Origin: Schmidtea polychroa
Lineage: Eukaryota
Assembly (NCBI GenBank): GCA_044892525.1
Contig: CM097885.1
Location: 21,392,001 to 21,456,000, forward strand
Direction: 5' to 3'
Length of the DNA stretch: 64,000 bases
Made by a program: the position numbers and the translations under genes. Below are positions 22,471-50,147 of the stretch, piece after piece (positions within the stretch are counted from its first letter, which is position 1; each line of letters starts with the position of its first letter). Below the pieces are notes generated by a model. The model was not told the origin of the DNA and made no database searches. It saw nothing but the letters and a program-made list of their open reading frames with translations.

Positions 22471-23043
22471 CTAATAATTTTTGTTTTAATTATCGATTAC
22501 ATAATAATTTAATTTGTTTAAATCGTTGATTATTATTATTTTTATTATTATTATTATTATTATTATATACTCCGAGTTTATCCGACAAGATATTCTGTCC
22601 CCCTATGGGTATTGCTAGCAAGGGTACTACTCACACTCAACAAGTCACATGGGTACTGTTCATATTATTATTATTATTATTATTATTATTTATTTTTTTT
22701 TCAAAGATATTTAGTTACATGCTCACTGCAAACTAAAGTAAATATGAACAGTATTATCAAATTAAATAAAAATAATAAAACTTTATAAAAATTTAAATTC
22801 TTTTAATGGCTCAAAACAAAGTCCTAATCCATAGTGACAACATTACTAGTTTTCAATAATAAAACAATTTTTAATATACTTTCTATGTTTAAACACTTAA
22901 GGAATGTTTAATAATATTACACAATATAATGATTTTTATCCATAGAAAGAAATACGAAAACTTTTCATTAATAAAAATCAACACAAATCAATGTTTTTAC
23001 AAAGTTATATTAATTTATCACAGGAAAAAGATATTAAAATCGC

Positions 23044-26000
23044 TTAATCACTCAATTGTACATCATCAATATCAATTTCGTCACTCAATTGTACATCATC
23101 AATATCGATTTCGTCACTCAATTGTACATCATCTATATCTATTTCATCATTAGGATCATCACCAGAATCGAAATCTAGACTTAAACCATTGAAAAGTGGA
23201 CCCACTTCCTCATCACCAGAAACAAAATCTGGACTTAATCCTCCGAATAGTGGCCCAACTTCTTCAAATATTTGATCATCATTTATATCATCTAGTGCTA
23301 AATAATGACCAAATGCGAGACTGGAATTTTTCCCCACCCAAAACCGCTTGTCGTCGTTGTTTGACAACGCGATTTTATTGTTTTTAAATGTGTACAATTG
23401 ATGGTTCCGCGTCCCTATCCTACTTTGTGGCACAGAAAATACTACGTTGTTATTGTAGCATTCTAAATATGAATCGTGCCTAATTTCTGTACCTATTAAC
23501 CTGACTCCTTTTGCTTTTAAATGATCTTTAGCCCCTAATAAACTATAGCACTTGGGTCTTAAGAAAACCCATTCCTTATACCCTAGACCTTTACTTTCAT
23601 CTTTAAATTTACCTATCACAGAATCAAGGTTTCTAGAGTATAAGGGATGTGCAGGGTCATAGTTGGAAGTATTTAAAAGATTGTCACGAATCATTGCCGG
23701 CAAAAGAGTGTCAAGCTTACAGTGCCTAACCTCAAGAAAAAAGGAGTCAGTATCGCCGGCAACGATATTTATCTCACATTTAAATTCATTTCTATATTTA
23801 GCCAATTCTATATACTGTGACTGGTACATCCTCAGTTTAGACAGGTCTAGCACCGTTTGGCCAATGTAACTAGGCCTGTCTAAACATATAGAATCCTTAT
23901 TGAGATGTGCAGCAATCAAGTCATCATCAATTTTGATAGATTTCTTGAAAGTCGGCTTTGAAGCATATACAATCATCTTTTCAGCTGAATTGCATAGCCT
24001 CAAATTCATCCGTTTTTTAAGGTTTTCTACGGATTTCCCATACAGACTATTATTAAATAATTTGTATAGATCTCTGTGCAGCTCACATGTAGAATTGGCT
24101 CTCAAATTAGTGTTTTTGTCTATGTAAGATTTAAAAATGGGTGCATGCTTAAATTTGATTGCTCTATGTACATTTTTAATAATAGCCCCCAATTCTATAT
24201 ACAACTTGAGAAGTCGCCAATGAAGAACATGGTTCTTCTTCGGCCAATGCGTGAGCATCAGCTTCTCAACTTTAGAATTTGGCGGGCACATCTTTTCCGG
24301 AGCAAGAGGAAAATCATTCAGAAAGTCATGCAAACAATCAGGTATATCGATATCTACCTCCATAGTATAACCATATGGAAGGTTATCGATATCAGCAATC
24401 ATACATTCATTCAAGACAGAATCAAGATCATCATACACCCAAACAAAGTCAGCATAAGGCAGATTTTGGCTTAAGGCCCAACCATACAAGTTATTAATAT
24501 CAATATACAAGAGTTCTGTGTCTTCAGAACTTGCAACATAATGTTTGTTAACAAATGTTAACCCACCCCGTATCCCTCCTTCATAGAAATTAAACATTTC
24601 CATGTCCTGCAAAAGTTCAATGGGTTCCGTTAATGTCATAAGCGCAGAGACCCATGACATACCGGGAATGCCATAGAAATTAAGAGGCTCAAGACCATTG
24701 TAAGCAATGGCCTTTTCACGGAATTGTTGAAAATAGTCTGCGAGGAGAAACACGTCTAATTTAAGGTAAGTTAACATGTAATCTAACATGTTGTTACAGT
24801 TTTGCTGAGTCCAAATTACTTGGGCTAATGCATATTCATCATTAGACACTGAATCCCAGATAGGAGGCAATTCAAGAGTCGATTCCAGAACCTCAAGAGA
24901 TGTGGCAAAGTCATAAGGAAAGATACCTTTGGATCGAACAATTGCGCCATCGAAAACAGAAGAAGTTAAAGGCAGATCGGAAAGAGTCTTAACCGCTTTT
25001 GCTAAAGAAGAATTAACAAACTGCATGATGTCAATAAAACGAACAGACAATTTGTTAATGTACGCGATAAGAGAGATGAATTTCTCGGTAGTGGTCGGAA
25101 TAATATTTAATTCCCAAGAAGGAAAATTATTGAGACCGTACTTCAAAATATGATGGAGATCATACCCCCTCAAATTGTGAAAAACCACAGGTAACTGTTT
25201 CTGAATTCGTCGAGAAACATTACATTTCCTACAGGCAGCACCAAGATACTTACCTGAAAAGTGACAATGATCCCTAACTCTATTTCTAATAAATTTTTTA
25301 CAAAGGTAGCAGGTTCTGGAATCACGAAAAGCCCGCTCTTCAGCGAAAGACAAGGTTTGCATGGGCTTTTTCCCATTAATTTCGTAATATGGCAGGACAA
25401 TTGTCATAGCAATTTCCTCCACCTTATTCAAGAAAGATAAGATGCAATCATCCCCAACAAACTCATAATAAAATTTAGAGTTATTATAATTATTTATTAA
25501 TAATAAACCTGCTGTTATTGGCAAATGCTTTTGATGGTGTATTATATCCCCAGGTAAAATTGATTCAAAGTCTGCATATATCACGAATGGCGGGGTTATG
25601 GTTTTCGCGAAATTACTAAATATAAGGTTTTTATCTTTAGGTAACGTGTATAGAGTTGTTCCTATCTGGTTTTTAATGCATAAGGCAACGTGAATATCAA
25701 ATGCATTTTTATGTCTAAATCCGTTAAGACAGTGGGGGCACCAGTTCACTTGAAGTATAATGCCGCATTCACTGCTAGAGCGACAATTCATTAGTCTTTA
25801 TAAGTTAAAAACTGCGGTATAATGAAAATTATCACCGTCTTCCAATAAAAGTAAGTATAAGGGTTCACCACCTATAACCTTAGATCGGTGAATTATATCT
25901 AATTGAGGATGATGTGGAATATAATTATCGTCAACTATATTTTCAAAAGGCTTAGCAGGGGTCGTTCTATAAGTTAAAACATTTATTGCTAAATTTAAAT

Positions 26001-26520
26001 CCTTATTTTTCATCTCGAATTTAGGAATATCACATAGTTTCATTGGACAGTCGGAAATGGGGTCAAAATTTAACTCGTCAAGATAATTTTCATAGGAACT
26101 AACTCTATTTCTATTTATATGTACTACATTACGTTTTAAAAGTGCTAAAATACTATATATAAAGCACATATCATCGGTGTTTTTAACATTTACTATTGCA
26201 TTTTTAGATTTTAAAGATGATGGGGTGGGGATATAACTATGTCCAGCTAGCCTATTCATATGTGTAAATTTTGTTAATATAAAATCTATTTCTTTGATTT
26301 TAACAACCCGCCATCCACTACCCAAATATGTGAATTTTTCTATTTTATTATTTAATTTGTGAACCCCCTCACTTAGAAAACTATCTGAAAAAGCCTCTGC
26401 CCTATTCGAGAAGAAATTATCTTTAATTTCACCATCTTTTTCAAATTGAATCAATACGGAGAATTGTATTTTCACCGACCCCATTCTGTTTATTTCATGA
26501 TTTAACTTATTAACGATTTT
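23044..26520 (-). pseudogene. Protein-primed family B DNA polymerase, 5'-truncated, one in-frame TAA at 25798-25800
   Basis: YADFES, endonuclease-VII-like CYLC..DHCH..CRKCN, FHNLRGYD, KGIFPY, DINNLYG, KLFNNSLYGK, GDTDS, DDKR; ORFs 25798-26484 and 23044-25791 share one frame. Confidence 0.93.
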
Positions 26521-26529
26521 ATCGGTTAT

Positions 26530-28463
26530 GGTTATTTGAATGATGTTATGACCGTCTCTCTGATTGTGTTTGCGTATTTTACTACCATATTTCTAATTGT
26601 CGCCGCCGATTTCGGAACAATAAACCCACGAGCTCCTAGCGATGTTCTCAGTTCAGCCGATGTGGCAAATACGCTAAAGGGCAGTCCGTCAAGGGCGGTC
26701 ATTCTAGAAAGAACTGCAGGCAACGACTTGTCATGTTGATTTTGGAAGAAATCGGTGATCAGAGGTTTGGGTTTTTTGGCCGATGACAACGGAGCCGATG
26801 AAAACGAAGCCGATGACGATGCTGCATCTTGGGTCGATTTTCTCTTTAGCAAGTCAATTTCATGGTTTGTTCTTAGATGTGTATGGAGTCCACTGGTACT
26901 GCCACCATGTGATTTTATCTCTTTGTCGCATTTCTTACACTTTGAAAGTTGATTTTCTTTATCACGCAGAAAATAAAACCACACAAAATTTTCGTCTACT
27001 CGTGCGCCGGTGCTGAACTCTTTGAATATTTTTTGGGACATTTTGGGGGTTTCTGGATATTAAATTAATATAAAACTTTTTTTGTCTATTTCTTGTTGTC
27101 TTCAAACAAAAACAAAAATCTGCAAATAAAATCGAACTAATTCATTTAAAGTACCCAAATCTATGTTTATAAATTAAATACTTACTATTTAAATGCAAAT
27201 TTACTAACGTAGACGTATTTATTTGAATAAATATCAATCGGATTTCAATTTAACTACTGAATTATTATATAACGTTATTGTTATTATTGAATTTAAAAGT
27301 AGGTTTCTGAAATTTCGGGTCAATAAAATAATTAAATCTAGCACATCGCATACTAGAAATATTTGGTTAATGGGATTTATGTTTAAATATCCAAAGCAAA
27401 ATTAAGTTTAAAATCATTCTTAAATAAAAATTTTACTTATTTTTAATCTTGATTATTTATATGTTTTTTAGACTTCCAATTATATGACGATCTAGATAAT
27501 AAATTATCAAATGTTACAAGAAACTGTTGTAATTTGTACAACATTAATTGAAAAAACATTTTTTTTACTAAAAAACAACGCATGAGTAAAAAAACCAGAA
27601 AATTTCACTACAAATAGCTATTGTAATAAAAAAGCGCTTATTTTGAAAATAAATGAACAATTTACTCAATTAAAATAATAAGTTAAATAATGAGCATATG
27701 TGGCAATGTTATATTCGTGGACAGATTAAAATCATTTTGCTTTGTCCAAAAATATTTGCGATGATTTCAAATTGAAAAGTAAATAAATAAATAAAAATAC
27801 ATTCATAACAAAAAACCTTCCTACATTATTATTGGATCAGTTCAAATTTCTGAAAAAAACCACGATAAGCAAGCCACCATATTTTTATCAGAGGTTAGGA
27901 AATCTAAGCTTATAGTTTGTCGAGTACTCGAAAGTGCTTTTTTTTGTAAGGGAAGGTTTATTTGCGCGGGTAAAATACAATTCAGAATGCATAAAGTTTT
28001 TTTTATTTAACGTTATCATAATTACTTATAAAACTTTATGCCTAATAATCTATTAGGCATAAAGTTTTTGCATGAGTACTGAAGATATAATAGAGACATT
28101 TGTCTTTTTAAATACTAGTTAAATAATAAATAGTCAGGAAACAATAAATTTAGTCAGGAAAAATTGTAATTGGTCATGAATTTTACAATTTTTAGTTCTG
28201 CATAAACAGTCATGCAAAACCATTAATAGTCCTGCATTCGTCAATTTAGTTATGAAAGTCTAATTTATTTTTGCTTAAAAAAGCAATGCCTTATTATTAT
28301 AATATTTTTTAAGTAAAATTGAGAAACAATTTTAAATATTTTTTATATATCCTATACCGGAAATACCGGCATTGATCCAACTCAATACCGGTATTTCGGT
28401 ACCAGAAAAAAGTCCGGTAATACCGGTAGTACCGATACCGGTATACCGGTATTGAATGCACTA
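26530..28463 (-). mobile_element. hAT transposon 5' half with BED-finger ORF (26532-27041)
   Basis: Minus-strand terminus TAGTGCATTCAATACCGG with ATACCG repeats; VWFYF..CKKC..STSGLHTHLRTNH BED finger and DGLPFS motif. Confidence 0.85.
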
Positions 28464-30732
28464 CTGCTACCTTTGTAAAAAATTTATTAGAAATAGAGTT
28501 AGGGATCATTGTCACTTTTCAGGTAAGTATCTTGGTGCTGCCTGTAGGAAATGTAATGTTTCTCGACGAATTCAGAAACAGTTACCTGTGGTTTTTCACA
28601 ATTTGAGGGGGTATGATCTCCATCATATTTTGAAGTACGGTCTCAATAATTTTCCTTCTTGGGAATTAAATATTATTCCGACCACTACCGAGAAATTCAT
28701 CTCTCTTATCGCGTACATTAACAAATTGTCTGTTCGTTTTATTGACATCATGCAGTTTGTTAATTCTTCTTTAGCAAAAGCGGTTAAGACTCTTTCCGAT
28801 CTGCCTTTAACTTCTTCTGTTTTCGATGGCGCAATTGTTCGATCCAAAGGTATCTTTCCTTATGACTTTGCCACATCTCTTGAGGTTCTGGAATCGACTC
28901 TTGAATTGCCTCCTATCTGGGATTCAGTGTCTAATGATGAATATGCATTAGCCCAAGTAATTTGGACTCAGCAAAACTGTAACAACATGTTAGATTACAT
29001 GTTAACTTACCTTAAATTAGACGTGTTTCTCCTCGCAGACTATTTTCAACAATTCCGTGAAAAGGCCATTGCTTACAATGGTCTTGAGCCTCTTAATTTC
29101 TATGGCATTCCCGGTATGTCATGGGTCTCTGCGCTTATGACATTAACGGAACCCATTGAACTTTTGCAGGACATGGAAATGTTTAATTTCTATGAAGGAG
29201 GGATACGGGGTGGGTTAACATTTGTTAACAAACATTATGTTGCAAGTTCTGAAGACACAGAACTCTTGTATATTGATATTAATAACTTGTATGGTTGGGC
29301 CTTAAGCCAAAATCTGCCTTATGCTGACTTTGTTTGGGTGTATGATGATCTTGATTCTGTCTTGAATGAATGTATGATTGCTGATATCGATAACCTTCCA
29401 TATGGTTATACTATGGAGGTAGATATCGATATACCTGATTGTTTGCATGACTTTCTGAATGATTTTCCTCTTGCTCCGGAAAAGATGTGCCCGCCAAATT
29501 CTAAAGTTGAGAAGCTGATGCTCACGCATTGGCCGAAGAAGAACCATGTTCTTCATTGGCGACTTCTCAAGTTGTATATAGAATTGGGGGCTATTATTAA
29601 AAATGTACATAGAGCAATCAAATTTAAGCATGCACCCATTTTTAAATCTTACATAGACAAAAACACTAATTTGAGAGCCAATTCTACATGTGAGCTGCAC
29701 AGAGATCTATACAAATTATTTAATAATAGTCTGTATGGGAAATCCGTAGAAAACCTTAAAAAACGGATGAATTTGAGGCTATGCAATTCAGCTGAAAAGA
29801 TGATTGTATATGCTTCAAAGCCGACTTTCAAGAAATCTATCAAAATTGATGATGACTTGATTGCTGCACATCTCAATAAGGATTCTATATGTTTAGACAG
29901 GCCTAGTTACATTGGCCAAACGGTGCTAGACCTGTCTAAACTGAGGATGTACCAGTCACAGTATATAGAATTGGCTAAATATAGAAATGAATTTAAATGT
30001 GAGATAAATATCGTTGCCGGCGATACTGACTCCTTTTTTCTTGAGGTTAGGCACTGTAAGCTTGACACTCTTTTGCCGGCAATGATTCGTGACAATCTTT
30101 TAAATACTTCCAACTATGACCCTGCACATCCCTTATACTCTAGAAACCTTGATTCTGTGATAGGTAAATTTAAAGATGAAAGTAAAGGTCTAGGGTATAA
30201 GGAATGGGTTTTCTTAAGACCCAAGTGCTATAGTTTATTAGGGGCTAAAGATCATTTAAAAGCAAAAGGAGTCAGGTTAATAGGTACAGAAATTAGGCAC
30301 GATTCATATTTAGAATGCTACAATAACAACGTAGTATTTTCTGTGCCACAAAGTAGGATAGGGACGCGGAACCATCAATTGTACACATTTAAAAACAATA
30401 AAATCGCGTTGTCAAACAACGACGACAAGCGGTTTTGGGTGGGGAAAAATTCCAGTCTCGCATTTGGTCATTATTTAGCACTAGATGATATAAATGATGA
30501 TCAAATATTTGAAGAAGTTGGGCCACTATTCGGAGGATTAAGTCCAGATTTTGTTTCTGGTGATGAGGAAGTGGGTCCACTTTTCAATGGTTTAAGTCTA
30601 GATTTCGATTCTGGTGATGATCCTAATGATGAAATAGATATAGATGATGTACAATTGAGTGACGAAATCGATATTGATGATGTACAATTGAGTGACGAAA
30701 TTGATATTGATGATGTACAATTGAGTGATTAA
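28464..30732 (+). pseudogene. Second (inverted) copy of the pPolB C-terminal ~755 codons
   Basis: Translation identical to the minus-strand copy from CYLCKK onward; the ORF-track ATG comes from the hAT TIR. Confidence 0.92.
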
Positions 30733-33377
30733 GCGATTTTAATATCTTTTTCCTGTGATAAATTAATATAACTTTGTAAAAACATTGATTTGTGTTGATT
30801 TTTATTAATGAAAAGTTTTCGTATTTCTTTCTATGGATAAAAATCATTATATTGTGTAATATTATTAAACATTCCTTAAGTGTTTAAACATAGAAAGTAT
30901 ATTAAAAATTGTTTTATTATTGAAAACTAGTAATGTTGTCACTATGGATTAGGACTTTGTTTTGAGCCATTAAAAGAATATAAATTTTTATAAAGTTTTA
31001 TTATTTTTATTTAATTTGATAATACTGTTCATATTTACTTTAGTTTGCAGTGAGCATGTAACTAAATATCTTTGAAAAAAAAATAAATAATAATAATAAT
31101 AATAATAATATGAACAGTACCCATGTGACTTGTTGAGTGTGAGTAGTACCCTTGCTAGCAATACCCATAGGGGACAGAATATCTTGTCGGATAAACTCGG
31201 AGTATATAATAATAATAATTATAATAATAATAATAATAATAATAAAAATAATAATAATAATCAACGATTTAAATAAATTAAATTATTATGTAATCGATAA
31301 TTAAAACAAAAATTATTAGTTCTAAAAATATTAGGCATCGTTCTAAAATAATGAGGCATCGTTCTAAAAATATGACGTAATCATTCTAAAAATATTAGGC
31401 ATCGTTCTAAAATTATGACGTAATCATTCTAAAAATAAGAGGCACTATTCTAAAAATATTATGCATCATTCTAAAAATATTAGGCATCGTTCTAAAAATA
31501 TTAGGCATCGATTACGTAATAGTTCTAAAAATATTAGGCATCGTTCTAAAAATATTAGGCATCGATTACGTAATAGTTCTAAAAATATGTGGCTTCGTTC
31601 TAAAAATATATGGCATCGATTGCGTAATAGTTCTAAAAATATTAGGCATCGTTCTAAAAATATGATGAGTCATCGTATGATAAAAATCTATATCTCATTA
31701 GAAAGTTCTTGCACAGAGCTTTAAAATAAGCTATCGATCAATATAATATGTTGGCGGGAACATTAATCTTTGGGATGAAAAAAAGTGTGAGCCCGCTGTG
31801 CCAATTAATAATATTTTGACAAATAATAATAATTTAACTTTGAAAAAATGGTGGTCATTAAATGTTAATAACATTAAAACTATTAAAGATATATAAGATA
31901 CCTATAGCTCATTCGAAAGGTCTTGGACTGAGCTTTAAGATGAGGTATCGGTCAATAAAATCTGATGGTGGGAACATTAACTTTTGGGATGAAAAAAAGT
32001 GTGAGCCCGCCAGATCACTTAATTTAAAATAAAATTACGTAATAGTTCTAAAAATATTAGGTATTGATTACGTAATAGTTCTAAAAATATGTGGCATCGT
32101 GCTAAAAATTTTTTTTTCCGGGGGGGGAGGGGGTATATGTGATGCGGGAAGCTCCTGATCTGGGGAGCTCCAATCCTACTACTTAAGCACGATGATCTAA
32201 CCTGTGACTTCGATTTCTAGTATCGGTACCACTCTGATGTTTCTTATGTGTTCTGTTAGAAATTTGAGTCTAGAATAGTTTAAATGATCGTTACCCATAT
32301 GCCACTGGACATTATGGGAACGAGCTCATAATGTCCTATACCATAAAAGAGTGAAGATTAGATGTAAAGTTATTTATGTTGTCTATATGCGGTATAGGTT
32401 TATTTCATTACAGAAAAATAGAAAATTGTTGATTCCACACGGGCCACTGGCGGATCAGGCGTTTGTTTATCATTCCAAAAACCCAAGAGCGACGAAAAGA
32501 ATATGAAAATAAATTTCAACTGTAATTTTGGAGTCTAACAAAAAATTATTGATATTTTTTCAGAATTCACTGAATATTTTTGCCCGTTTGTTAAATTGAA
32601 AAACTTGAATCAAAACCCACCCGACGAATTTATCTGACTTAAATTCTGCATTCCAGCCTGAGCGATGTTCGTCTGAGTTTGTATGAGTGTAATTGTCACA
32701 AATATACATCTCGATTTTAAAAATTTTTACATTAAAATCTCGTGACCCCAAGATTTTGCTAAGAAAAAAAAAGAAAAAAAATCAAATTTTATTTTATGTA
32801 AATCGAACTGGCACAAGGCCGAAGGGGAGAACGGTTCTCACCCTTAAATAAACTGAAATTTTTATGTGTATTCTCTTTGGATGCTGGAGTTAGAAACTCT
32901 GGCATCAAACGTGGTTTTTTCTAAGTATTTTATCACCAATCATCTTGGGCATACATTACATAGGAGATTAATAGTTTTTTTCACAATCAAGTATTTTATC
33001 AGCAAGCGGTGGCTTAGTTTTTTCTTTCACAGTATCAGTCTTCGAATTCTGGCATCAAACGCGGTTCTCCATAAAGTATTCTATCAGCAAGCATTCTGTG
33101 CCCACACATATCTAAATGAATTAAATAATTCGGAGTAAGAAGACTCCATTTGCGATTTTTGTAGCCGTCAGATATTATACAATATATTATAGTATGGATT
33201 GGAAGGAATGGTGTTTAAGGTAAGGTGGTTTAAAGGAATAGGTTTTATATTACAAATATTAACGACTAAAAAGGTATTATCAGTTAGGCGGAGCCCATAC
33301 AAGGACTCCTACATTGACCTATTGATAATATAAACTCTTAATGACGTTTTCCCTTCTTCTTTTTGTTATTAGCTTTT

Positions 33378-35609: not shown

Positions 35610-36773
35610 ATTTTGTGCAGGGATGCGCCCTTATTTTTCTATTTATAAATGTTGCTAGGTATTTTCCTTGATATTTATGAATATTTAACCTATCTTCCAA
35701 AGGTTTTAAGCAGGGATCGGCCCTTATTTCCAAGTTAATCCACACTTCCCATAATATTTAAATTATTCTTCAAAGGATTTGAGCAGGGATCTGCTTGTAT
35801 TTCTAATTCTAACCTATATTCCAATGGAAATACTTACAGCGACAGCCCCCCCAACAAAACATACCTCCATTACGCTTAAACCATTAGAAAAACAACCTAA
35901 AACTTATACTTTTATAGTATTTTAACCCTATATTTTGAAAACAACCACCCTTAATGGCTCTAACTGTTTTAATCTTTAAAGCCTCAAACTCAAAAGCTTC
36001 AAACTAAAAACATAAAGAGAATAGAAAAGAAAATGGTATTATGAAAAAGTTAGAGGGCTATTTTGGTTAGGGATATAAACACACTACTTGAGGATGTCAA
36101 CTAGCAAGTTGCTATTTGACTAATTTATAATTTTATAAATCTTAATCTTGATGTCTTGAAGAATAAAAAATTTTATGAAATAGTAAAACTGCTCTGAGAG
36201 GACAGTGGTATTTTTTTTTTCATTGTCCTCTCAACAGTTTTTTTGATCCGGATCATTTTTTTATTCAACCTCTTTCGTTTATCGAATCTCTTCCAATATA
36301 CAAGCTGGCCAGACTCATACATCAGAATCAATTCGATAATAGCAGCACACCTTATTATTCGCTTCTCGCTCGAATACGATTTCATCGGCGTTTTAAGCGT
36401 GCTGCTCGAAAGTACAAATGAATTCGAAAGTGAATCCGAAAGAGGTCCGAAAACAACTGAGAAATAAATGTGCACATTATAGAATCGATCCGGGGTGTGT
36501 TCGAAAGACTGGTGGCGATAATTATCGGTTCACCATCACACCCGTTTCAATAATTTTTTTTCATATTTATGTTTAAAAAATAAAATAAAATATATAAAAT
36601 AAAATAAAAATAAATAAAATAAAATATAAATTTAAGATACCCACAATATTATTTTCAAATTTTTAATATTATTTTATGTTGAAAAAAAACTAACCTCAGA
36701 TGTGATTTGAACCGCTATCTATTTTAACCACTGTGCCAGTCTAGCCCACTGCGCTATCTGGGTTTGGATTTTT
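35610..36773. repeat. Left TIR
   Basis: Reverse complement of 50148-51316. Confidence 0.92.
36682..36763 (-). ncRNA. tRNA-sized Pol III-type unit in the left TIR
   Basis: A box TAGCGCAGTGG, B box GGTTCAAATC, terminal stem, T8 run. Confidence 0.55.
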
Positions 36774-36842: not shown

Positions 36843-39800
36843 ATGAAAACAGAGTATCCAATAAAAAATTTTTTTCTAAAAATGAATTGTAATATTTGCA
36901 ATAAAGTTTTTAAAAATAAAACTGGATTAATTTCTCACTTAAAATCGAAAGCTCATTTATTAAAAGAAAATAATCTTAATGATACAAATTCAAAACTTTG
37001 TCCTAAATGTAAAGGAAGATTTCTACATTCTGGATATAATAAACATTTTGAAAATTGTATTGGGAAAAATAGAGAAATATTTACATGTCCTCATTGTAAC
37101 TTTTCAACAAAACTAAATTTCTATTATTTAGAACATATAAAAGAATGTAAAAATAAAAAACAAAATTCTGACGATGAGGAATGTCATTCAGAAGGAGAAC
37201 CTGATCATGTTGAAAGAGAAAAATATAACTGGGATAATTTTAATCATATAGATGAATTTCAATTAAAAATTAATGGACCTGCAACTCCTGTAGAATATAT
37301 AAATAAAAATAAAAAAAATATTAAAAATTCTTTCACTGAAGCTTTAAAAAATTATAAACCGACAAGGTATAATGTTATAAAATATAAAATTATAATCAAA
37401 GCAAAATACTGGCGAGGAGCAGAAGAAAAGACAACACCCTTAGATGTTGAAATTGGAATACCTTTTAAATATTTATTTTCAACTAAAGGATTTGATAAAA
37501 CCATCAAAGAAATAATTAAAGCAGCAGAAGCAAAACAAGAGGAAGTAGAAAATGAATTAGGAGATTCAAACTTAGTATTCAACTCTTTCCAAACTTTAGT
37601 GATTGATTATTGGAGAGGATTACCACCCAATCCTAAATCTTATATTCCTACACCCTTTAAATCTAAAAATGTTATAAACATACAGAATAATGATAACAAA
37701 TGTTTCATCTGGTCAATACTTGCACATTTACATCCTCAAGAATCAAACCCTCAAAGAGTTTCAAAATACAAACAATATGAAAATGAATTAATATTTCCCA
37801 AAGGATTCAAACATCCAATGAAACTAGAAGACATTCCAGAATTTGAAAGTTTAAATAATCTTAAAATTAATATTTATGAACGTGTTAAAGGGAAACATGT
37901 TAATAGTAGAGAAATTATTCCAATTTACATTTCTGATAGTGGAACCAATGGTAACGAAGTACAAGAAAACACTAGAGAAATATATCTTTTAATCTTGGAA
38001 CAACAAAATAATCAACATTATGTTTTAATAAAAAACTTTCAAGCTTTTACATCACCAGAGGATCCAACTAGTGGAGGAGGAACATGTAAAAGATGTCTTC
38101 ATTATTCAACAATTAAAAACTCTATGATTAAACATACAAGATTTTGTGAAAAAGATGAACCAGCTTTAATTAACATGCCTAAAGATCCCAAGATGCATTT
38201 TAAAAACTTTTCAAATTTACTACAAACAGTAGGAGTGCTTTATGGAGACTTTGAATCTATAAATCGTAAACAAGATTTGGTTAAACAATATTTAAAAATA
38301 ATAGAAAAAAATAAACTCATGGATTCATGGAACTCCTCAGGAGAGAAGATGAAACCAGAGAGGATGAAAGCCTTTCTAAGAAAAAGAAACAAACCTAATA
38401 GTGTTAAAAAAACTAAACAATTACCATCTGCTTATAAATTATTATTTAAAAGTAATTATCCTGAACTCATAGAATCTAGAGAATATACATTTCAAGGAAT
38501 TTCAGAAACAGAAGTCTTGAATCATTTTACTAAAAATATAAATGATCTAGAACATGAAATATTTAAAGTATTAAAAACAAAATATGAAATAAATTTTTCA
38601 ATTGAACAATTGGAAGAATATGAAAACTCTTCAAATTGTTGGATGTGTAAACCACCATTTGAGGATCAACTCCTTGAGGAACCTCCAAATAATGAAACTA
38701 TTGAAGAAGAAGAACAAAGAATGTTTCATGAAAGACAATCTTCAAATATAAAAGTCCCCGATCATGATCATTTAAAAAAGGAAAATAATTATCGAGGAGC
38801 AGCTCATAAAAATTACAATCTTAATTGTCATACTCCTAAATTTGTACCTGTTATATTTCATAATCTTTTTGGTTATGACATACATCTATTTATTAAACAT
38901 TTAGCAGAAAATGCTAAAAACTCTTTCAAAGTTATAGGACTTACAAAGGAAAAATATAAATCAGTAGAATATGGAAAATTAAAATTTATAGACTCGTTAA
39001 ACTTTTTCCAAATGTCTCTAGATGCAATAGCAAAAACATTGAAACCAGAAAAATTTAAAATCGCTCGAAAATTCTTGGAAATAAATAATATTCCTCCAGA
39101 AGAATATCCTACATGTTTAGCAAAAGGAATATATCCTTATGACTATGTTGAATCGTTTGAGAGATATAATGAAACAAGTCTTCCTAGCCAAGAAGATTTC
39201 TCTTCACAACTTCAAAAATATCATATTACAGATCAAGAATATTCTCGAGCAAATAAAATGTGGGAATTATTCAAGTGTAAAACTTTAGGAGAATATACAA
39301 GTATGTATTTATCTTTGGATGTTTATATTCTAGCCGATTGTTTTGAAGAATTTACAAAATCTTTTGTTCTTAAACCTTACAATTATATAACAGCACCCTC
39401 TTTAGCTTGGGATACTTTATTATATACCATTTGGACTTCAAATATAGAAGAATCTGATAAAATTATAGATCTTTTAACTAACCTCGATATGTTTAATCAA
39501 ATTAAAACAAACATTAGAGGAGGAGTCTCTTCAGTAATGTGGAATCGAGAAATAAAAGCTAGAAATGCAATAACTACTAGCAGAATGCTTTCAAAGACCT
39601 CTGATCCATATATAAAACTTAACAATGAGGGATTAAAAGAATTATTAGAAACAATGAAAAATCTTCTATTTATACTTTATATAGATGCAACAGCTCTATA
39701 TTCAGGAATTATGACTCAATATTTACCGATGAGTGACTTTCATGAAATATACTCTGAAGATTCCTCAGAAGAATCCTTAAAAGACCTTATGAAAGAAATA

Positions 39801-41318
39801 CTTTCAACACCTAAAGATTCTCCAATAGGTTACTTTGTAGAATGTGACTTATTATATCCAGATGATATAAAATCAGGAACAAGATATTTCCTTTTAGCTC
39901 CTGTAAGAAGAAAGATTAATGTTAACGAACGTTCTGAATGGCAAATCTCACAAGATAAACCTCCAACAATGAAACTTCTTTGTGATCAAACAGATCGAAC
40001 TTATTATCTTTGTCACTATAGACTCCTCCAATTTTATCTTTCACGAGGTATGATATTAAAAAAAGTTCATAGTGTCATAAGATTTAAACAAGCTCCATTC
40101 GTGAAAGTTTTTATAGAAGAAAACATTAGGTGTCGAAACATTGCAAAAAGAGAAGGTAACCTTTTTAAAGATAATAATTATAAACTTTTAAACAATTCAG
40201 TCTTTGGGAAAACAATGGAGAATGTTGATAAATATACTCATATAGAACTTTTAACTAATACTCATAAAGATATTAAGCGTTATAATCGTATGCTAGGAAA
40301 GCCTACATTTAAAAACGCACAAGTATTTTCTGAAAGTCTTACTGCAGTAGAACTAAAGAATTTTGAGAAAACATACAACAAACCAATATTTATAGGGTTT
40401 TCAATTTTAGAACTTTCAAAATTACAAATGTATGAAACATATTATAACATCTTACAACCTATATATGGTTCTAATATATCACTGCATGCAATGGATACAG
40501 ATTCAATGTTTTTAACAATAAGAACTCATGATTTACAAAGAGATATAGCTGAAAATCCTATACTTTCAAATTTAATAAATTCATCTGGAGAACTATTTTC
40601 ATTTAAAGATGAAAAACCTTTTACTCCTATAGAAAATGGGATATTTATTCGTGCTAAACAATATTCATACGAAACATTTACAAATCCTAAATTTGAAACC
40701 CGAGAAATTATATTTAAAACTCCAGAAAAAGAGGAAATTATTTCATTTAAATATCCTATATTCCCTAATGAAGAAAAACCTGTAAAGGATAACAGATGTA
40801 AAGGAATACAGAAATCAGTTGCAAAGAATCTTTCTCATCAAGATTATATAGATACATTAAACCCAGGTCATAAAGATAAAATTGATGAAATACATCAACT
40901 TAAAAGTGAAAACCATGATATTCACTTGATAGAATCTCAAAAAGTATCATTATCAAATTATGATGATAAAAGATTCATCCTAAGTGATTTAAAGACAACT
41001 CTACCTATAGGAAATAATTTAATCCCTATAATAAAAAATCTTGCTAGTTTGAATAAGTTATATGATACAAAGATTACTGATCTTGATATTTATAATGTTG
41101 AAATCATTTATCCCGAGAGAGAAATCGAGAAGCCTTTATATTCTCAAGTTTTTAATCCTATATGTTTAGAACTTAAATATTTTAATACTGAAGGATTATC
41201 AGATAAAGAATTTAAAGATCATAAAAAGGTTCTAAAAATTAAATTCGAAAAGTTTAAAGATCATAAAGAGGTTCTAAAAATTAAATTCGAAAAGTTAACA
41301 TCAGATTCTATCAAATGA
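36843..41318 (+). CDS. Protein-primed DNA polymerase B with N-terminal zinc fingers
   Basis: 1491 aa; C2H2 motifs, NNDNKCFIWSILA, YGDFES, FHNLFGYD, KGIYPY, RGG, DATALYS, KLLNNSVFGK, MDTDS, DDKR. Confidence 0.95.
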   Translation: MKTEYPIKNFFLKMNCNICNKVFKNKTGLISHLKSKAHLLKENNLNDTNSKLCPKCKGRFLHSGYNKHFENCIGKNREIFTCPHCNFSTKLNFYYLEHIKECKNKKQNSDDEECHSEGEPDHVEREKYNWDNFNHIDEFQLKINGPATPVEYINKNKKNIKNSFTEALKNYKPTRYNVIKYKIIIKAKYWRGAEEKTTPLDVEIGIPFKYLFSTKGFDKTIKEIIKAAEAKQEEVENELGDSNLVFNSFQTLVIDYWRGLPPNPKSYIPTPFKSKNVINIQNNDNKCFIWSILAHLHPQESNPQRVSKYKQYENELIFPKGFKHPMKLEDIPEFESLNNLKINIYERVKGKHVNSREIIPIYISDSGTNGNEVQENTREIYLLILEQQNNQHYVLIKNFQAFTSPEDPTSGGGTCKRCLHYSTIKNSMIKHTRFCEKDEPALINMPKDPKMHFKNFSNLLQTVGVLYGDFESINRKQDLVKQYLKIIEKNKLMDSWNSSGEKMKPERMKAFLRKRNKPNSVKKTKQLPSAYKLLFKSNYPELIESREYTFQGISETEVLNHFTKNINDLEHEIFKVLKTKYEINFSIEQLEEYENSSNCWMCKPPFEDQLLEEPPNNETIEEEEQRMFHERQSSNIKVPDHDHLKKENNYRGAAHKNYNLNCHTPKFVPVIFHNLFGYDIHLFIKHLAENAKNSFKVIGLTKEKYKSVEYGKLKFIDSLNFFQMSLDAIAKTLKPEKFKIARKFLEINNIPPEEYPTCLAKGIYPYDYVESFERYNETSLPSQEDFSSQLQKYHITDQEYSRANKMWELFKCKTLGEYTSMYLSLDVYILADCFEEFTKSFVLKPYNYITAPSLAWDTLLYTIWTSNIEESDKIIDLLTNLDMFNQIKTNIRGGVSSVMWNREIKARNAITTSRMLSKTSDPYIKLNNEGLKELLETMKNLLFILYIDATALYSGIMTQYLPMSDFHEIYSEDSSEESLKDLMKEILSTPKDSPIGYFVECDLLYPDDIKSGTRYFLLAPVRRKINVNERSEWQISQDKPPTMKLLCDQTDRTYYLCHYRLLQFYLSRGMILKKVHSVIRFKQAPFVKVFIEENIRCRNIAKREGNLFKDNNYKLLNNSVFGKTMENVDKYTHIELLTNTHKDIKRYNRMLGKPTFKNAQVFSESLTAVELKNFEKTYNKPIFIGFSILELSKLQMYETYYNILQPIYGSNISLHAMDTDSMFLTIRTHDLQRDIAENPILSNLINSSGELFSFKDEKPFTPIENGIFIRAKQYSYETFTNPKFETREIIFKTPEKEEIISFKYPIFPNEEKPVKDNRCKGIQKSVAKNLSHQDYIDTLNPGHKDKIDEIHQLKSENHDIHLIESQKVSLSNYDDKRFILSDLKTTLPIGNNLIPIIKNLASLNKLYDTKITDLDIYNVEIIYPEREIEKPLYSQVFNPICLELKYFNTEGLSDKEFKDHKKVLKIKFEKFKDHKEVLKIKFEKLTSDSIK

Positions 41319-43962: not shown

Positions 43963-44520
43963 TCATTGTTCCTTCCAAGGTTTTAAATACAATCCTTTAC
44001 CACTATTCTGTGGAGTTCCTCCAATTTTACAAATACACCCATTCTTTAAAGATTTACATATTTTTTTAAAATCATCTTTATCTTTTGATGATAAAGATTC
44101 AGATGTTGAAATTTGATTTTTTAAAAAATCATTTAAACCTCTGCCTTTATATGGATCAAGATAGAGACCTTTGCCCTGATATGGATTAAGATAGAGACCT
44201 TTTCCTTTAGCTTGCCCTACCTTCATTTTCTCGATTTCAGTTTGTAATTTTTCTTTTTCTAGGTCTGTCTTTTGAGATTCTCTAGCTTTTTGAACTGTAG
44301 TTGCAATTCCTCCAGCTATTCCAGCAGCACCTGATAGTCCAGCAATGATTGCAGGTATTAAAACACCTAATGGAAGAATACCACCTTCTTTAGCCGAAGA
44401 CATACGTTCTTTAACTTGTTCTTTTACATGTTTTCCAATAAAATATTTCTTACCATCAATTACTACTGATTTATTTTTATTTGAATTTATTAATTATTGC
44501 AAAGATTCTTCAGTTGTCAT
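43963..44520 (-). pseudogene. Adenovirus pX-like virion precursor with GxGLYL repeats; TAA at codon 9
   Basis: EGGILPLGVLIPAIIAGL..AGIA; GKGLYL x3; the duplicate starting at 48841 has GAA at this codon. Confidence 0.65.
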
Positions 44521-44535
44521 TTTATAATAAACAAA

Positions 44536-45327
44536 ATGGATATTTGGAAACCAATTTTAAATAGACATAAGAGTAAATTTAATAATAAAGTATTTCCTGA
44601 TAATTTTAGATTATTAATTGTTGGTTCTTCTGGATGTGGAAAGAATGTACTTGTTTTGAGAATGTTACTTGAAGATGATTTTTTAGATTATAATAATTTA
44701 ATCTTTTACTCTACAACCATAAATCAACCAGAATTACAACTTTTGAAATGTGGATTTGAAAATAAATTAACTAAAAAAGCTATAATTGATATTTTTAAAA
44801 ATCAACATAGTAGTCCTGAAGAAGTTTTTCAACCTTGTGATATGGTTGATTGGTATAAGGAAAAGATTTTAGAATCAGATATTAGTAATAAAAATGATTA
44901 CATCTGTGAAGATGAGGGGGAGGGGATTCAGGTTTTATTCTCTAATAAACCTGAAGATGTTTTACATTGTGATTTACTTCCTAAAGATAAAAAGAATCTA
45001 GTTATATTTGATGATGTTGTCAACATGAAAAATCAAGAGATTCAAAAGAGTTACTTTACAAGAGGAAGACATAATAATTGTAATGTTATTTATATATCTC
45101 AAACATATTATGCTTTAGATAAAAACTCTATAAGAAATAATTCCAATTGTTTTATATTTTTTAAATTAGATCGCCGTGATAAGAATATGATTTATAATGA
45201 TTTATTTTCAAATGTTGAACCTGATAAGAATATGTTTGATATGTTTGTTGATAATCATTGGAGAGAAAAATATAATTATATTTATTTGGATAGAGAAGAA
45301 GCTGAAATATGGAAAAGTTTGTTTTAG
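44536..45327 (+). CDS. A32/FtsK-like DNA packaging ATPase
   Basis: Walker A GSSGCGKN, Walker B VIFDD, FTRGRHNN, YISQ, IRNN. Confidence 0.92.
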   Translation: MDIWKPILNRHKSKFNNKVFPDNFRLLIVGSSGCGKNVLVLRMLLEDDFLDYNNLIFYSTTINQPELQLLKCGFENKLTKKAIIDIFKNQHSSPEEVFQPCDMVDWYKEKILESDISNKNDYICEDEGEGIQVLFSNKPEDVLHCDLLPKDKKNLVIFDDVVNMKNQEIQKSYFTRGRHNNCNVIYISQTYYALDKNSIRNNSNCFIFFKLDRRDKNMIYNDLFSNVEPDKNMFDMFVDNHWREKYNYIYLDREEAEIWKSLF

Positions 45328-45338
45328 GGCTTGTCGAC

Positions 45339-46235
45339 TTAAAAATCTGTTTTCTGTAACTCATTATTATAAAATCTACCTAATATTTTTTCATTATTTA
45401 AATCAATGATGCTATATGTTATTGGAGTTGTATAATGTATTTTATTTATAATAAAAATTTCATTTGTCCATTTTGCTGTGAATCCTTTTTCAAATTTATT
45501 TTTGTATTTAAATATTCTTACTCGTTCACCAATTTTAAACTTTGGTTTTTCAATAACATCATTTTCAACAGGATTCATGAGTTCCAAAGGATTCAAGGAA
45601 GCATTTAAAGGTGTTGATTTTATAGAACTATGTACATCATTATTATATTCATTTACAATCTTTTGTAACAATTCATTGTTCCATTTTTGTTTTCCAATAG
45701 CAGTAAAATATTTCCACATTTTATTTTTTAATGTTCTATTTAATCTTTCAACCACAACTGCTTTTCCTTCGTTTTCTGTTGAATATAATTTAATATCATT
45801 TTCATTTAAAAACTTTGTAAAAACTTTGTTATAAAATTCTGTTCCTTTATCACACCATAAATATTTTGGAATTCTTTGATGTTGTTCAAATATATTTTCA
45901 AATGCTTCTGTAATAGAATATCCTGTTTTATTTTCTAAACATCTTGCAAAAGCAAATCTTGTATATAAATCTATTACTGTTAAAATTATTTTATATTTTT
46001 CAGGGTCTGATGATTTGGTTGGCATAAAGACTAAATCTGCAGACCATGTTTGATCTTTTTCATGTACTTGAACTTTTAAATATTTTTTATTTTTTCTAAA
46101 TTCATGGTGTAATTCGTTGGCATATTTTATTTCTGATTCTGTTGGGGTTTGTAAACTAGTCTTGGATATATTCTCGAGGGATCTTTCAATGTCTGCTTGT
46201 TCGAGGATCTTTTTATTAGCAACATCTTTTGCTAT
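45339..46235 (-). CDS. Retroviral-type (rve) integrase, in frame with the upstream PLA2-like ORF
   Basis: ELH, WSADL, VIDLYTR, CDKGTEF, VERLNRTLK, HSSIKSTP, FEKGFTAKWT; no chromodomain. Confidence 0.92.
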   Translation of the reverse strand: MAKDVANKKILEQADIERSLENISKTSLQTPTESEIKYANELHHEFRKNKKYLKVQVHEKDQTWSADLVFMPTKSSDPEKYKIILTVIDLYTRFAFARCLENKTGYSITEAFENIFEQHQRIPKYLWCDKGTEFYNKVFTKFLNENDIKLYSTENEGKAVVVERLNRTLKNKMWKYFTAIGKQKWNNELLQKIVNEYNNDVHSSIKSTPLNASLNPLELMNPVENDVIEKPKFKIGERVRIFKYKNKFEKGFTAKWTNEIFIINKIHYTTPITYSIIDLNNEKILGRFYNNELQKTDF

Positions 46236-46736
46236 TTAGGGAAGTCTTGCATCCATAGGAAGTCCTGCTCCTATGAAAATCTTACCTTTCATTGCTAATT
46301 TAACTAGAGCTCTTTGAATCTTTTCTTGGGTTGATGGATTTTGGATATTATTTAAATCATGTATTAAATTAACATCAGCAACATGTCTATCTCTAAGATC
46401 CTCTGAGTTGTAAGCAATATCATGTTTTAAAGCTGCTTGATCAATTCTATTTATTGGTTCTTCTCCTTGTTTAGGATTATTATTTTCATCTAATCTAATA
46501 TCTAATCTTGTTTCTGGTCCGGTATAGTTGTGTTTAAATAAATGTCTTTCACCTGGATATTTTTCTGTAGTAAAAGGTTTTAATATTGAAGATGTTGTTT
46601 TTGAAGATTGCATGTCACCTCCTGTTCGTGTAATATCGACTCCTATATGTTTTTTAGTTTTTAAATGACTTGCTTTATGATGTCTTGTAACTTGACAATT
46701 ACAACTTTCACATCTCCAATATTTATTTAAAGACAT
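46236..46736 (-). CDS. Zinc finger plus parvovirus-type phospholipase A2-like domain
   Basis: CESCNC..HLKTKKH; HNYTGP...PINRIDQAALKHDIAY...RHVAD. Confidence 0.85.
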   Translation of the reverse strand: MSLNKYWRCESCNCQVTRHHKASHLKTKKHIGVDITRTGGDMQSSKTTSSILKPFTTEKYPGERHLFKHNYTGPETRLDIRLDENNNPKQGEEPINRIDQAALKHDIAYNSEDLRDRHVADVNLIHDLNNIQNPSTQEKIQRALVKLAMKGKIFIGAGLPMDARLP

Positions 46737-46753: not shown

Positions 46754-48046
46754 TTAAGAATCTCCCCTAACATTTTCAATAATTGAAATCTTTCCACCAT
46801 ATAATTTCATTTCTATTTTCTTTTCTTCTAATATTAATGTATATACTTTAGCTTTGAAATTAGAATCCTTTGTTACATGAAGTGTAACATCAACATTATT
46901 TATGGCTAGGCGATCATCTTGGTCTGAAACATTTATACAAAATATAGAATATAAATTTTTGAAATCTTCTAAACTTAATTGCGGTTCAACTTTGAAATCA
47001 TAACATGTTTCAATATAATTTAGATATGGGAATATGTTTTCATTATTTTCAATATTAAATTCCATTCTATTTATTGGATAATAAGAACTATTTAATTGAA
47101 TTTGGATTGTTTTTAAATTATCATCTCCAATCTTTTGAATAAACAAGTTGTTATTTTTTTGGAAAGATGAATCTACTTCTTTGAATCCAATCAAGATATA
47201 TCTTGGTCGGTATGCTAAATTTGCTACCTTTATAGAATATGTTGAACCCTCTGTCATACTAAATTCACTACAGATTCTATTTAAATAATTTACATTTATA
47301 GATTTGTTGGAATTTAATCTTTCAAGGAGTTTGATTTCGGAATGTGGGTTTAATGTCCATTCAGGTATATGTAATTCAAGTGTTGATAATTTTAATTTAG
47401 CTTTTGTATCTGCAGCTCCATAGAACAATCTTTTATCACCTTCTACTCTATTACAAACTAATTCTATAAAAACATTATGAAGTATACGATTATAGTTTTG
47501 AAGGAATCCAAACAAGTGTTTTAATTCAAAATAACCTTCAAATTTTTTAGATTTATAAAGTTCAGCTCTTTTATAATAACCATAATTTATATCTAAACCA
47601 TCTTTATCTAAATCCCCTTTATTAGTGTCAGGAATCCAACCTGTTAATTCCCCATATTCATTTTTATAGTCACAACCAGTTAAAATAAAATTTAACATTG
47701 TAGAATATACTCCTGGATGTAAAACAGTTTCAATTTCTGATGATCCTAGTTTTAATCTCATGTTGGAGAATAAATTTGGAAAGAAATTATTTTCTAGGGT
47801 TATATCTTTGTTTGCTTCAATTTCTAATTCAATTTTATAATATAATTTGGCATTACAAATATCTATTGGGTTTGATGTTTGAAGAGATTGAAAAACTATA
47901 TCACCCCTACGATTTAAGTTTGCAATAGATCCTGAAGTTGGTGAGATTTTAAGTACATCATTTTTCTTGATTTCATGAGTAAATTCTTTATTATAATCAA
48001 GATTTAATTTATTTTTTTCTTGAATTTTAAGATTTATATTATTCAT
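46754..48046 (-). CDS. Probable major capsid protein (double jelly-roll)
   Basis: 430 aa beta-rich ORF with NNFFPNLFS..L.LG, RPRYILIGF and YYP patterns; assigned from size, pattern and context. Confidence 0.7.
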   Translation of the reverse strand: MNNINLKIQEKNKLNLDYNKEFTHEIKKNDVLKISPTSGSIANLNRRGDIVFQSLQTSNPIDICNAKLYYKIELEIEANKDITLENNFFPNLFSNMRLKLGSSEIETVLHPGVYSTMLNFILTGCDYKNEYGELTGWIPDTNKGDLDKDGLDINYGYYKRAELYKSKKFEGYFELKHLFGFLQNYNRILHNVFIELVCNRVEGDKRLFYGAADTKAKLKLSTLELHIPEWTLNPHSEIKLLERLNSNKSINVNYLNRICSEFSMTEGSTYSIKVANLAYRPRYILIGFKEVDSSFQKNNNLFIQKIGDDNLKTIQIQLNSSYYPINRMEFNIENNENIFPYLNYIETCYDFKVEPQLSLEDFKNLYSIFCINVSDQDDRLAINNVDVTLHVTKDSNFKAKVYTLILEEKKIEMKLYGGKISIIENVRGDS

Positions 48047-48073
48047 TTTTATAATAAAAATTTTAAAAATGAC

Positions 48074-48601
48074 AAAAATCCAAACCCAGATAGCGCAGTG
48101 GGCTAGACTGGCACAGTGGTTCAAATAGATAGCGGTTCAAATCATATCTGAGGTTAGTTTTTTTTCAACATAAAATAATATTAAAAATTTGAAAATAATA
48201 TTGTGGGTATCTTAAATTTATATTTTATTTTATTTATTTTTATTTTATTTTATATATTTTATTTTATTTTTTAAACATAAATATGAAAAAAAATTATTGA
48301 AACGGGTGTGATGGTGAACCGGTAATTATCGCCATCAGTCTTTCGAACACACCCCGGATCGATTCTTTAATGTGCACATTTATTTCTCAGTTGTTTTCGG
48401 ACCTCTTTCGGATTCACTTTCGAATTCATTTGTACTTTCGAGCAGCACGCTTAAAACGCCGATGAAATCGTATTCGAGCGAGAAGCGAATAATAAGGTGT
48501 GCTGCTATTATCGAATTGATTCTGATGTATGAGTCTGGCCAGCTTGTATATTGGAAGAGATTCGATAAACGAAAGAGGTTGAATAAAAAATGATCCGGAT
48601 C
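48074..48601. repeat. Internal partial TIR copy (includes Pol III-type unit 48084-48165, + strand)
   Basis: Matches 50148-50676. Confidence 0.9.
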
Positions 48602-50147
48602 TCTAGCTTTTTGAACTGTAGTTGCAATTCCTCCAGCTATTCCAGCAGCACCTGATAGTCCAGCAATGATTGCAGGTATTAAAACACCTAATGGAAGAAT
48701 ACCACCTTCTTTAGCCGAAGACATACGTTCTTTAACTTGTTCTTTTACATGTTTTCCAATAAAATATTTCTTACCATCAATTACTACTGATTTATTTTTA
48801 TTTGAATTTATTAATTCTTGCAAAGATTCTTCAGTTGTCATTTTATAATAAACAAAATGGATATTTGGAAACCAATTTTAAATAGACATAAGAGTAAATT
48901 TAATAATAAAGTATTTCCTGATAATTTTAGATTATTAATTGTTGGTTCTTCTGGATGTGGAAAGAATGTACTTGTTTTGAGAATGTTACTTGAAGATGAT
49001 TTTTTAGATTATAATAATTTAATCTTTTACTCTACAATCATAAATCAACCAGAATTACAACTTTTGAAATGTGGATTTGAAAATAAATTAACTAAAAAAG
49101 CTATAATTGATATTTTTAAAAATCAACATAGTAGTCCTGAAGAAGTTTTTCAACCTTGTGATATGGTTGATTGGTATAAGGAAAAGAATTTAGAATCAGA
49201 TATTAGTAATAAAAATGATTACATCTGTGAAGATGAGGGGAGGGGATTCAGGTTTTATTCTCTAATAAACCTGAAGATGTTTTACATTGTGATTTACTTC
49301 CTAAAGATAAAAAGAATCTAGTTATATTTGATGATGTTGTCAACATGAAAAATCAAGAGATTCAAAAGAGTTACTTTACAAGAGGAAGACATAATAATTG
49401 TAATGTTATTTATATATCTCAAACATATTATGCTTTAGATAAAAACTCTATAAGAAATAATTCCAATTGTTTTATATTTTTTAAATTAGATCGCCGTGAT
49501 AAGAATATGATTTATAATGATTTATTTTCAAATGTTGAACCTGATAAGAATATGTTTGATATGTTTGTTGATAATCATTGGAGAGAAAAATATAATTATA
49601 TTTATTTGGATAGAGAAGAAGCTGAAATATGGAAAAGTTTGTTTTAGGGCTTGTCGACTTAAAAATCTGTTTTCTGTAACTCATTATTATAAAATCTACC
49701 TAATATTTTTTCATTATTTAAATCAATGATGCTATATGTTATTGGAGTTGTATAATGTATTTTATTTATAATAAAAATTTCATTTGTCCATTTTGCTGTG
49801 AATCCTTTTTCAAATTTATTTTTGTATTTAAATATTCTTACTCGTTTGGAAAGAAAGAAATTATTTTCTAGGGTTATATCTTTGTTTGCTTCAATTTCTA
49901 ATTCAATTTTATAATATAATTTGGCATTACAAATATCTATTGGGTTTGATGTTTGAAGAGATTGAAAAACTATATCACCCCTACGATTTAAGTTTGCAAT
50001 AGATCCTGAAGTTGGTGAGATTTTAAGTACATCATTTTTCTTGATTTCATGAGTAAATTCTTTATTATAATCAAGATTTAATTTATTTTTTTCTTGAATT
50101 TTAAGATTTATATTATTCATTTTTATAATAAAAATTTTAAAAATGAC
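48602..50147. repeat. Direct duplication of 44281-45526 joined to 47775-48073
   Basis: Contains a frameshifted ATPase copy (G-run shortened near 49240) and an in-frame capsid-N/integrase-C chimera. Confidence 0.9.

Follow-up and report, generated by a model that had tools for sequence, protein, structure and literature searches.

Pol III-type units at the inner edges of the Polinton TIRs

Does a Polinton carry at its ends a gene for a small RNA of the kind known from adenoviruses, or does it mainly keep a place where the Pol III machinery can bind? The question is raised by a 64,000-nucleotide stretch of Schmidtea polychroa contig CM097885.1 (hereafter the window), in which a first-pass annotation had described three tRNA-sized Pol III-type units in the TIRs of a Polinton and suggested either an analogue of adenovirus VA RNA or a TFIIIC-based promoter or insulator. 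A domain search of the window identified ORFs for a protein-primed DNA polymerase B (pPolB), an A32 ATPase, an integrase, a PLA2-like protein and a double jelly roll capsid protein, and by its pPolB, integrase, ATPase and capsid genes the element is a Polinton/Maverick. The three units, here called U1, are all present where they had been placed, and their parts could be read directly: the A box (TAGCGCAGTGG) begins at +8, the B box (GGTTCAAATC) at +51 and a T8 run at +75, leaving 74 nt from +1 to the T-run (Table 1).

Table 1. Features of the Polinton and its Pol III-type units (window coordinates)
Feature	Position	Strand	Remarks
Left inverted arm	35610-36773	+	
U2, left TIR	36180-36544	-	ends approximate
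U1, left TIR	36682-36763	-	A box 36756-36746, B box 36713-36704, T8 36689-36682; outward
Protein-primed DNA polymerase B ORF (PF03175)	36843-41318	+	
Packaging ATPase (PF04665), integrase (PF00665) and PLA2-like (PF08398) ORFs	44536-46736	.	Polinton markers
Major capsid protein ORF (PF21738)	46754-48046	-	
U1, internal copy (duplicated inner TIR)	48084-48165	+	A box 48091-48101, B box 48134-48143, T8 48158-48165
U2, internal	48303-48601	+	shortened by duplication junction
Right inverted arm	50148-51316	-	
U1, right TIR	50158-50239	+	A box 50165-50175, B box 50208-50217, T8 50232-50239
U2, right TIR	50377-50745	+	tRNA-Asp-like head, then strongly folded region; ends approximate

A strict scan of the 64 kb for an A box, a B box 30-70 nt downstream and T4, with box rules following the general consensus, found the three U1 units and no others. 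U1 is not a chance product; when the 959-nt TIR was dinucleotide-shuffled 20,000 times a unit of this form arose in 14 shuffles, the figures being 6 of 20,000 for its inner 550 nt and 1 of 20,000 for the unit itself. Neither is it a tRNA gene, as had already been noted: a cloverleaf with anticodon and T arms is absent, ARAGORN found no tRNA in the window or in 57 loci, and Rfam gave no match at U1, including to RF00005. The 5' stem strand ACCCAGA that had been described fared less well. The window copies can be drawn with a 7-bp stem that has one bulge, but the exact ACCCAGA is a rare variant.

The reported head-to-head arrangement with the polymerase and capsid genes stands for the polymerase, where 80 bp separate +1 of the left-TIR U1 from the polB ORF. 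On the other side it needs correction, since the right-TIR copy faces a cut duplicate of the capsid gene and it is the internal copy that lies back to back with the whole gene. Moreover, in most members of the family two more units and a short ORF separate U1 from the capsid gene.

Distribution of U1 in the genome

The genome has 1,111 exact matches to a U1 20-mer and 3,216 matches (about 3,200 copies) to a degenerate U1 A-box pattern; the reversed control of each had none. Polinton sequence flanks U1 at all 92 loci inspected, 89 of them outside the window. This sample is non-random. Of 40 DNA matches that were scored it takes the best 30 (three being the window's own), which are biased to close copies; the other two groups, 40 loci from unpaired matches within the first 100 of the list and 22 loci with a variant type of unit, come from the start of one chromosome.

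Heads of tRNA-derived SINEs keep their boxes and have lost the cloverleaf, and U1, with tRNA-type A and B boxes but no cloverleaf, looks like such a head, which could have been inserted into the Polinton as well as elsewhere. U1 differs from these heads in being tail-less and non-dispersed. The SINE candidate was rejected: U1 has no body, no tail and no target duplication of its own, T8 follows it directly, and since all 92 loci lie in Polinton context it is not a SINE head dispersed outside Polintons, an outcome that the first-pass annotation had allowed for. We consider a SINE origin of this kind hardly credible. U1 is confined to the element and moves only with the Polinton.

The host tRNA genes lie in long tandem arrays (Asp/Gly, Cys, Met and Lys) at C1:157.9 Mb, C1:269.3 Mb, C2:87.8 Mb and C4:76.7 Mb. 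One host tRNA pattern alone had 5,778 genome matches, so that U1, with approximately 3,200 copies, would account for the smaller part of the TFIIIC sites.

A cassette of four tRNA-type units

U1 is one of four tRNA-type units, designated Ua, Ub, U1 and U2, that form a modular cassette at the ends of the element; the initial description of the unit had missed the other three. Among 80 capsid-side ends, chosen by their capsid gene, U1 was present at 72, U2 at 73, Ua at 57 and Ub at 56. The order Ua-Ub-U1-U2 was found at 49 of these ends and the window type, U1-U2, at 10, while U1 was doubled at 8. Seven of the 80 ends had no unit, of which five are short, one is partly masked and one was left unexamined. 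At polymerase-side ends, chosen by the polymerase gene, both U1 and U2 were present in 30 of 30, with U1 in two or three tandem copies at 10 of them and the first U1 lying 59-92 bp from the start of the polymerase ORF. All units of the cassette are oriented outward.

The head of U2 is nearest to host tRNA-Asp (z 3.4-4.3). In the right TIR its A-like box is at 50386 with a B-like box 45 nt further; the U2 A box deviates from the strict rule, and the changed A-like box of the left-TIR copy fails a loose scan. The region that follows folds strongly on the outward strand (z -3.5 to -5.7, versus -1.1 to -2.3 on the other strand; 8 of 57 distinct copies folded). Changes in the U2 stems of 27 copies were mostly one-sided, being both-sided in 1 of 83 pairs, and the T-run in the stretch examined was T4 without T5 in 68 of 73 copies. 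U2 is a candidate for a longer Pol III RNA of about 370 nt.

With 32.4 and 29.0 bits, Ub scores above the tRNA cut-off of Rfam. It is identical to host tRNA-Cys at all 15 box positions and at 30 of the 57 others. The likeness to tRNA-Cys has z scores of 2.1-3.7, although tRNA-Lys scores equally for two of the three Ub variants. Its T stem keeps 5 of 5 pairs, three of them changed on both sides, while the anticodon stem is broken. These comparisons indicate a tRNA ancestry for Ub. The tRNA-Cys-like Ub, with its compensated T stem, and the strongly folded U2 are better RNA-gene candidates than U1. U1, Ua and Ub are paralogous beyond their boxes (z 2.7-5.5; U1-Ub 3.7, U1-Ua 2.7), and when U1 was compared with six host tRNA types the best z scores were 2.2-2.9, without any single parent being singled out. 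A likeness of U1 to selenocysteine tRNA was dismissed for want of Rfam support. Copies of Ua and Ub vary too little among themselves for a conservation test.

Conservation of the boxes and the terminator

The U1 copy set consisted of 80 copies from the 80 capsid-side ends. Changes that break the box rule and are common to at least three copies affected 0 of 15 box positions versus 23 of 59 body positions (Fisher p=0.002), and when the changes were merged into seven blocks random placement missed the boxes in 1.2% of trials. The sole shared box change, at +9, still obeys the rule. Both boxes are intact in 75 of the 80 copies, and T6 or longer follows U1 in 79. Within the unit, three positions of a second A-like word are broken in 14-17 of the 80 copies, and 70 copies are missing the final C of the first B-like word. 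The same pattern was seen among the paralogs: all 15 box positions of U1, Ua and Ub obey the rule and 13 are identical, compared with 16 of 57 positions elsewhere and 2 of 26 in the middle (p=6e-5). The prediction that the boxes would prove conserved is therefore borne out both among copies and among paralogs, which shows that U1 keeps its boxes, spacing and T-run while its body turns over.

The contrast has its limits. Downstream of U1 the AT-rich flank varies as little as the boxes do (2 of 41 columns), which indicates that the difference between boxes and body is partly that of a hypervariable body. Divided by base class the contrast is weaker (p=0.025 for G/C and 0.076 for A/T), and the copies look recombined and non-independent, with four gametes at 50 of 105 site pairs. 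One copy (L103) has no A box. Another (L242, 1237-1314) lacks one of two 16-nt B-like repeats and is left with one whole B box.

A charged ORF of 89 amino acids lies between Ub and U1 (L043, 1249-1518). It has no Pfam match over the cut-off, and its stop is inside U1 in 34 of the 46 capsid ends where the ORF was found. Coding constraint as the source of the box conservation was considered and set aside: the change at +9 alters a codon of this ORF yet obeys the box rule, the B box lies beyond the stop, and the U1 of the polymerase side is directly against polB.

A sister lineage and the wider range of the cassette

A sister lineage, with other terminal repeats and polymerases about 57-63% identical, accounts for the ends whose capsid identity is 91-95%. 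Five sister-lineage ends consist of the end of approximately 250 bp alone, without a unit, and three elements have the cassette at the capsid end in the order U1-U2-(Ua)-Ub. On the polymerase side no unit was found in eight stretches, four of which include the terminus. Matching 6-bp target duplications were found for L137/L213, which is unit-less, and for L131/L216, which has the cassette at one end, so the unit is not needed for insertion; the unit-less elements may be mobilized with help in trans. Since the sister lineage has the cassette reordered, at one end or not at all, the cassette is accessory. It is nevertheless common to lineages with differing polymerases, in reordered form. The capsid proteins of elements L121-L140 and L209-L216 are 91-98% identical while their polymerases are about 58% identical, an exchange of modules between Polinton lineages.

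The unit is not general to Polintons, being absent at ends of sister-lineage elements and, by the strict scan, from a second Polinton in the window (21575-32183). In 38 metagenome contigs with related capsids (20-52% identity), none of which clearly includes an element end, we found no convincing unit; a loose scan gave four matches, two inside capsid coding sequence and none with a convincing A box, and ARAGORN found no tRNA. Viral contigs had no capsid or polymerase relatives and no match to the U1 pattern. A genome search with a distant capsid recovered the same family and the sister lineage, with no third family.

These distributions bear on two ways of explaining U1. The first places it in the promoter from which Pol II transcribes the polymerase and capsid genes, with TFIIIC bringing TFIIIB/TBP to the shared gap of 40-90 bp. 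The back-to-back geometry at 30 of 30 polymerase ends fits this, as does the fact that, in the examples listed, Ua or U1 lies about 45-65 bp away from where the capsid gene starts, but the polymerase ends of the sister lineage and five capsid ends have no unit, and a T-run would be superfluous. We regard this role as improbable. The second takes U1 for a passenger: a tRNA copy in decay that is carried along with a useful U2 and is homogenized by conversion between the ends while itself having no function. Its accessory status in the sister lineage, the flank conserved like the boxes and the copy lacking an A box all suit a passenger. Random decay, however, should strike boxes as often as stems, and three paralogs have kept all 15 box positions, along with their spacing and T-run, around an unrelated middle; tandem duplicates of U1 also occur at 10 of the 30 polymerase ends and at 8 of the 80 on the capsid side. 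On balance a functionless U1 appears unlikely.

RNA shape and the function of U1

The three window copies of U1 do not fold better than their shuffles (z -0.55, +0.11 and +0.11), and the median over 25 of 46 distinct copies is +0.34. Among the 80 copies the 7-bp stem has all seven pairs in 1, six in 53 and five in 16. In 47 distinct sequences 75.4% of the cells of this stem pair, versus 76.0% in shuffles, with slid registers giving 20-57%, and its covariation is 0.088 versus a shuffled mean of 0.111, a value as high being reached by 481 of 500 shuffles. The T stem has two of five pairs in 77 of the 80 copies. An alternative 3' hairpin was discarded as it is whole in 32 of the 80 copies and missing in the others. 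We found no RNA-level constraint on U1. With the boxes and the T-run retained and the fold, the stem and covariation not, it is the promoter and the terminator that are kept and not the shape of the RNA.

The proposal that U1 is an analogue of VA RNA is not supported at the level of the RNA: the unit has half the length of a VA RNA and no conserved fold, and its closing stem is not maintained. A trans-acting role is conceivable in which U1 makes an abundant small RNA directed against the RNA defences of the host, a decoy like VA RNAs or the TMERs discussed below and aimed at Dicer, PIWI or La, its fast-changing body being the mark of conflict with the host. The strong terminator has been kept, the weak terminal helix pairs at 75% of cells versus 20-57% in slid registers, the copies number about 3,216, and the body varies more than the downstream flank and the paralogs; U1 also stands in a row with Ub and U2, which show RNA-level constraint, in a cassette common to lineages whose polymerases are about 58% identical. 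Such a decoy would nonetheless be 74-78 nt long versus about 160 for VA RNA, with a median folding z of +0.34, a 7-bp stem that is whole in 1 of 80 copies, covariation below that of the shuffles (0.088 versus 0.111) and a T stem of two of five pairs in 77 of 80. We rate it as fairly unlikely.

Because the start and stop signals for Pol III are kept and the RNA shape is not fixed, U1 is likely to be a landing site for the polymerase and not a decoy RNA in the style of adenoviruses. The unit is real and element-specific, and it is probably functional at the promoter level. Of the two functions put forward at the outset, the TFIIIC-based promoter or insulator fits best, and our leading explanation, to which we give somewhat less than an even chance, is that U1 is a retained tRNA-type Pol III promoter and terminator kept for its occupancy and acting mainly in cis. 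The kept T8 and the partial terminal helix (five or six of seven pairs in 69 of 80 copies) would also suit an RNA role and in that respect count against occupancy as the reason.

U1 is one of several worn tRNA-type paralogs at the Polinton ends. Under occupancy in cis, TFIIIC would bind it and Pol III would copy a short, loosely folded RNA, and the Pol III complex left in place would stand 60-90 bp from the start of the polymerase gene, beside the structured U2. Such a complex might hold the element's end open or protect it against the spread of heterochromatin, in the way that tRNA genes act at chromatin barriers. Two published observations are relevant: the barrier action of tDNAs requires TFIIIC and Pol III (PMC2040200), and planarian Polintons are targets of piRNAs and of chromatin silencing (PMC8532177).

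Comparison with known Pol III units

VA RNAs are about 160 nt long, consist of an apical stem and a central domain together with a terminal stem, and block PKR (PMC7589676). Like adenovirus VA RNAI and VA RNAII, U1 has an internal box A and box B and a terminator of T4 or more, and the likeness extends to a proposed tRNA ancestry, to more than one copy side by side and to an element with a protein-primed polymerase (PMC7589676). Unlike a VA RNA, U1 is about 75 nt long with no long duplex, and it does not have the conserved three-domain fold, the stable apical stem or the GGGU-ACCC central stem of those RNAs (PMC7589676); U2 is the folded candidate. The analogy with VA RNA is accordingly loose for the cassette and poor for U1.

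The TMERs of murine gammaherpesvirus 68 provide a second comparison. They form, in a DNA virus, a row of tRNA-like type-2 Pol III units that is dispensable for replication and has extra A-box-like words, and in this the cassette is like them (PMC8223928). TMERs have a tRNA-like fold followed by miRNA hairpins (PMC8223928), whereas U1 has lost the cloverleaf and ends at T8, and within the cassette only Ub, with D and T arms, and U2, with a head and a folded tail, have a TMER-like design. The cis-acting reading finds its counterpart in tDNA barriers such as the cen1 tDNA-Ala of fission yeast, which are A/B-box units whose value lies in their occupancy by TFIIIC and Pol III, as predicted for U1; these barriers are host tRNA genes at fixed loci, while U1 is a non-tRNA paralog on a mobile element and a putative barrier (PMC2040200).

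Predicted tRNA genes occur in midsize eukaryotic linear dsDNA viruses that are relatives of Polintons and have other replicases than Polintons do (PMC8502044). The accessible main text of that paper makes no mention of Pol III, VA RNA or noncoding units, and we found no mention of Pol III or VA RNA in the accessible text of PMC8097293. In the openly available literature that was searched, we found no description of Pol III units or noncoding genes in Polintons.

A broader proposal can be framed, which we put forward as doubtful. Polintons might carry a swappable cassette of Pol III small-RNA units bred from host tRNAs, a counterpart of VA RNAs and TMERs, in which promoter-only units of the U1 type would hold the ends open against piRNA-guided silencing, Ub and U2 would act as RNAs, and the lineages would trade the cassette. 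This would generalize from one element family in one genome. If it were true, Polintons, as integrating relatives of adenoviruses, would have arrived at the solution that VA RNAs and TMERs also represent. The cassette would also be a living model of the tRNA origin proposed for VA RNA, its members having decayed to several degrees, and would point to a mechanism, open to testing, through which an element of 3,000 copies resists chromatin silencing.

Structure of the window elements

The element in the window contains a local duplication, 47779-48601 being equal to 49853-50676. The whole of 47779-50676 is rearranged, with the 5' part of the capsid gene and the inner TIR doubled and a copy of 44279-45355 between them.

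The second Polinton at 21575-32183 represents another lineage. It is a fold-back element with AGTAGT ends, a 6-bp target duplication, perfect inverted arms of 2.6 kb, two copies of pPolB (with an EndoVII-like domain), a BED-finger ORF and tandem 21/33-nt repeats in its ends, and it had no capsid match.

Polinton TIRs are described as having (AGT)2 ends and a 6-bp target duplication (PMC8097293), and other copies of the family studied here end in AGTAGT. The window element is without these ends. Its outer ends, 35610-35841 and 51085-51316, are a different inverted repeat of 232 bp, found among the fetched loci in the window element only, save for one match of 70%, and no target duplication is evident at them. 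A second, inverted copy of the terminal word lies approximately 200-250 bp inside each end (36050-36090 and 50839-50865 in the window, and likewise at the ends of L122, L130 and L137), so that the element's tip forms a self-inverted segment in its own right. Several differing tip sequences are found on the same Polinton body.
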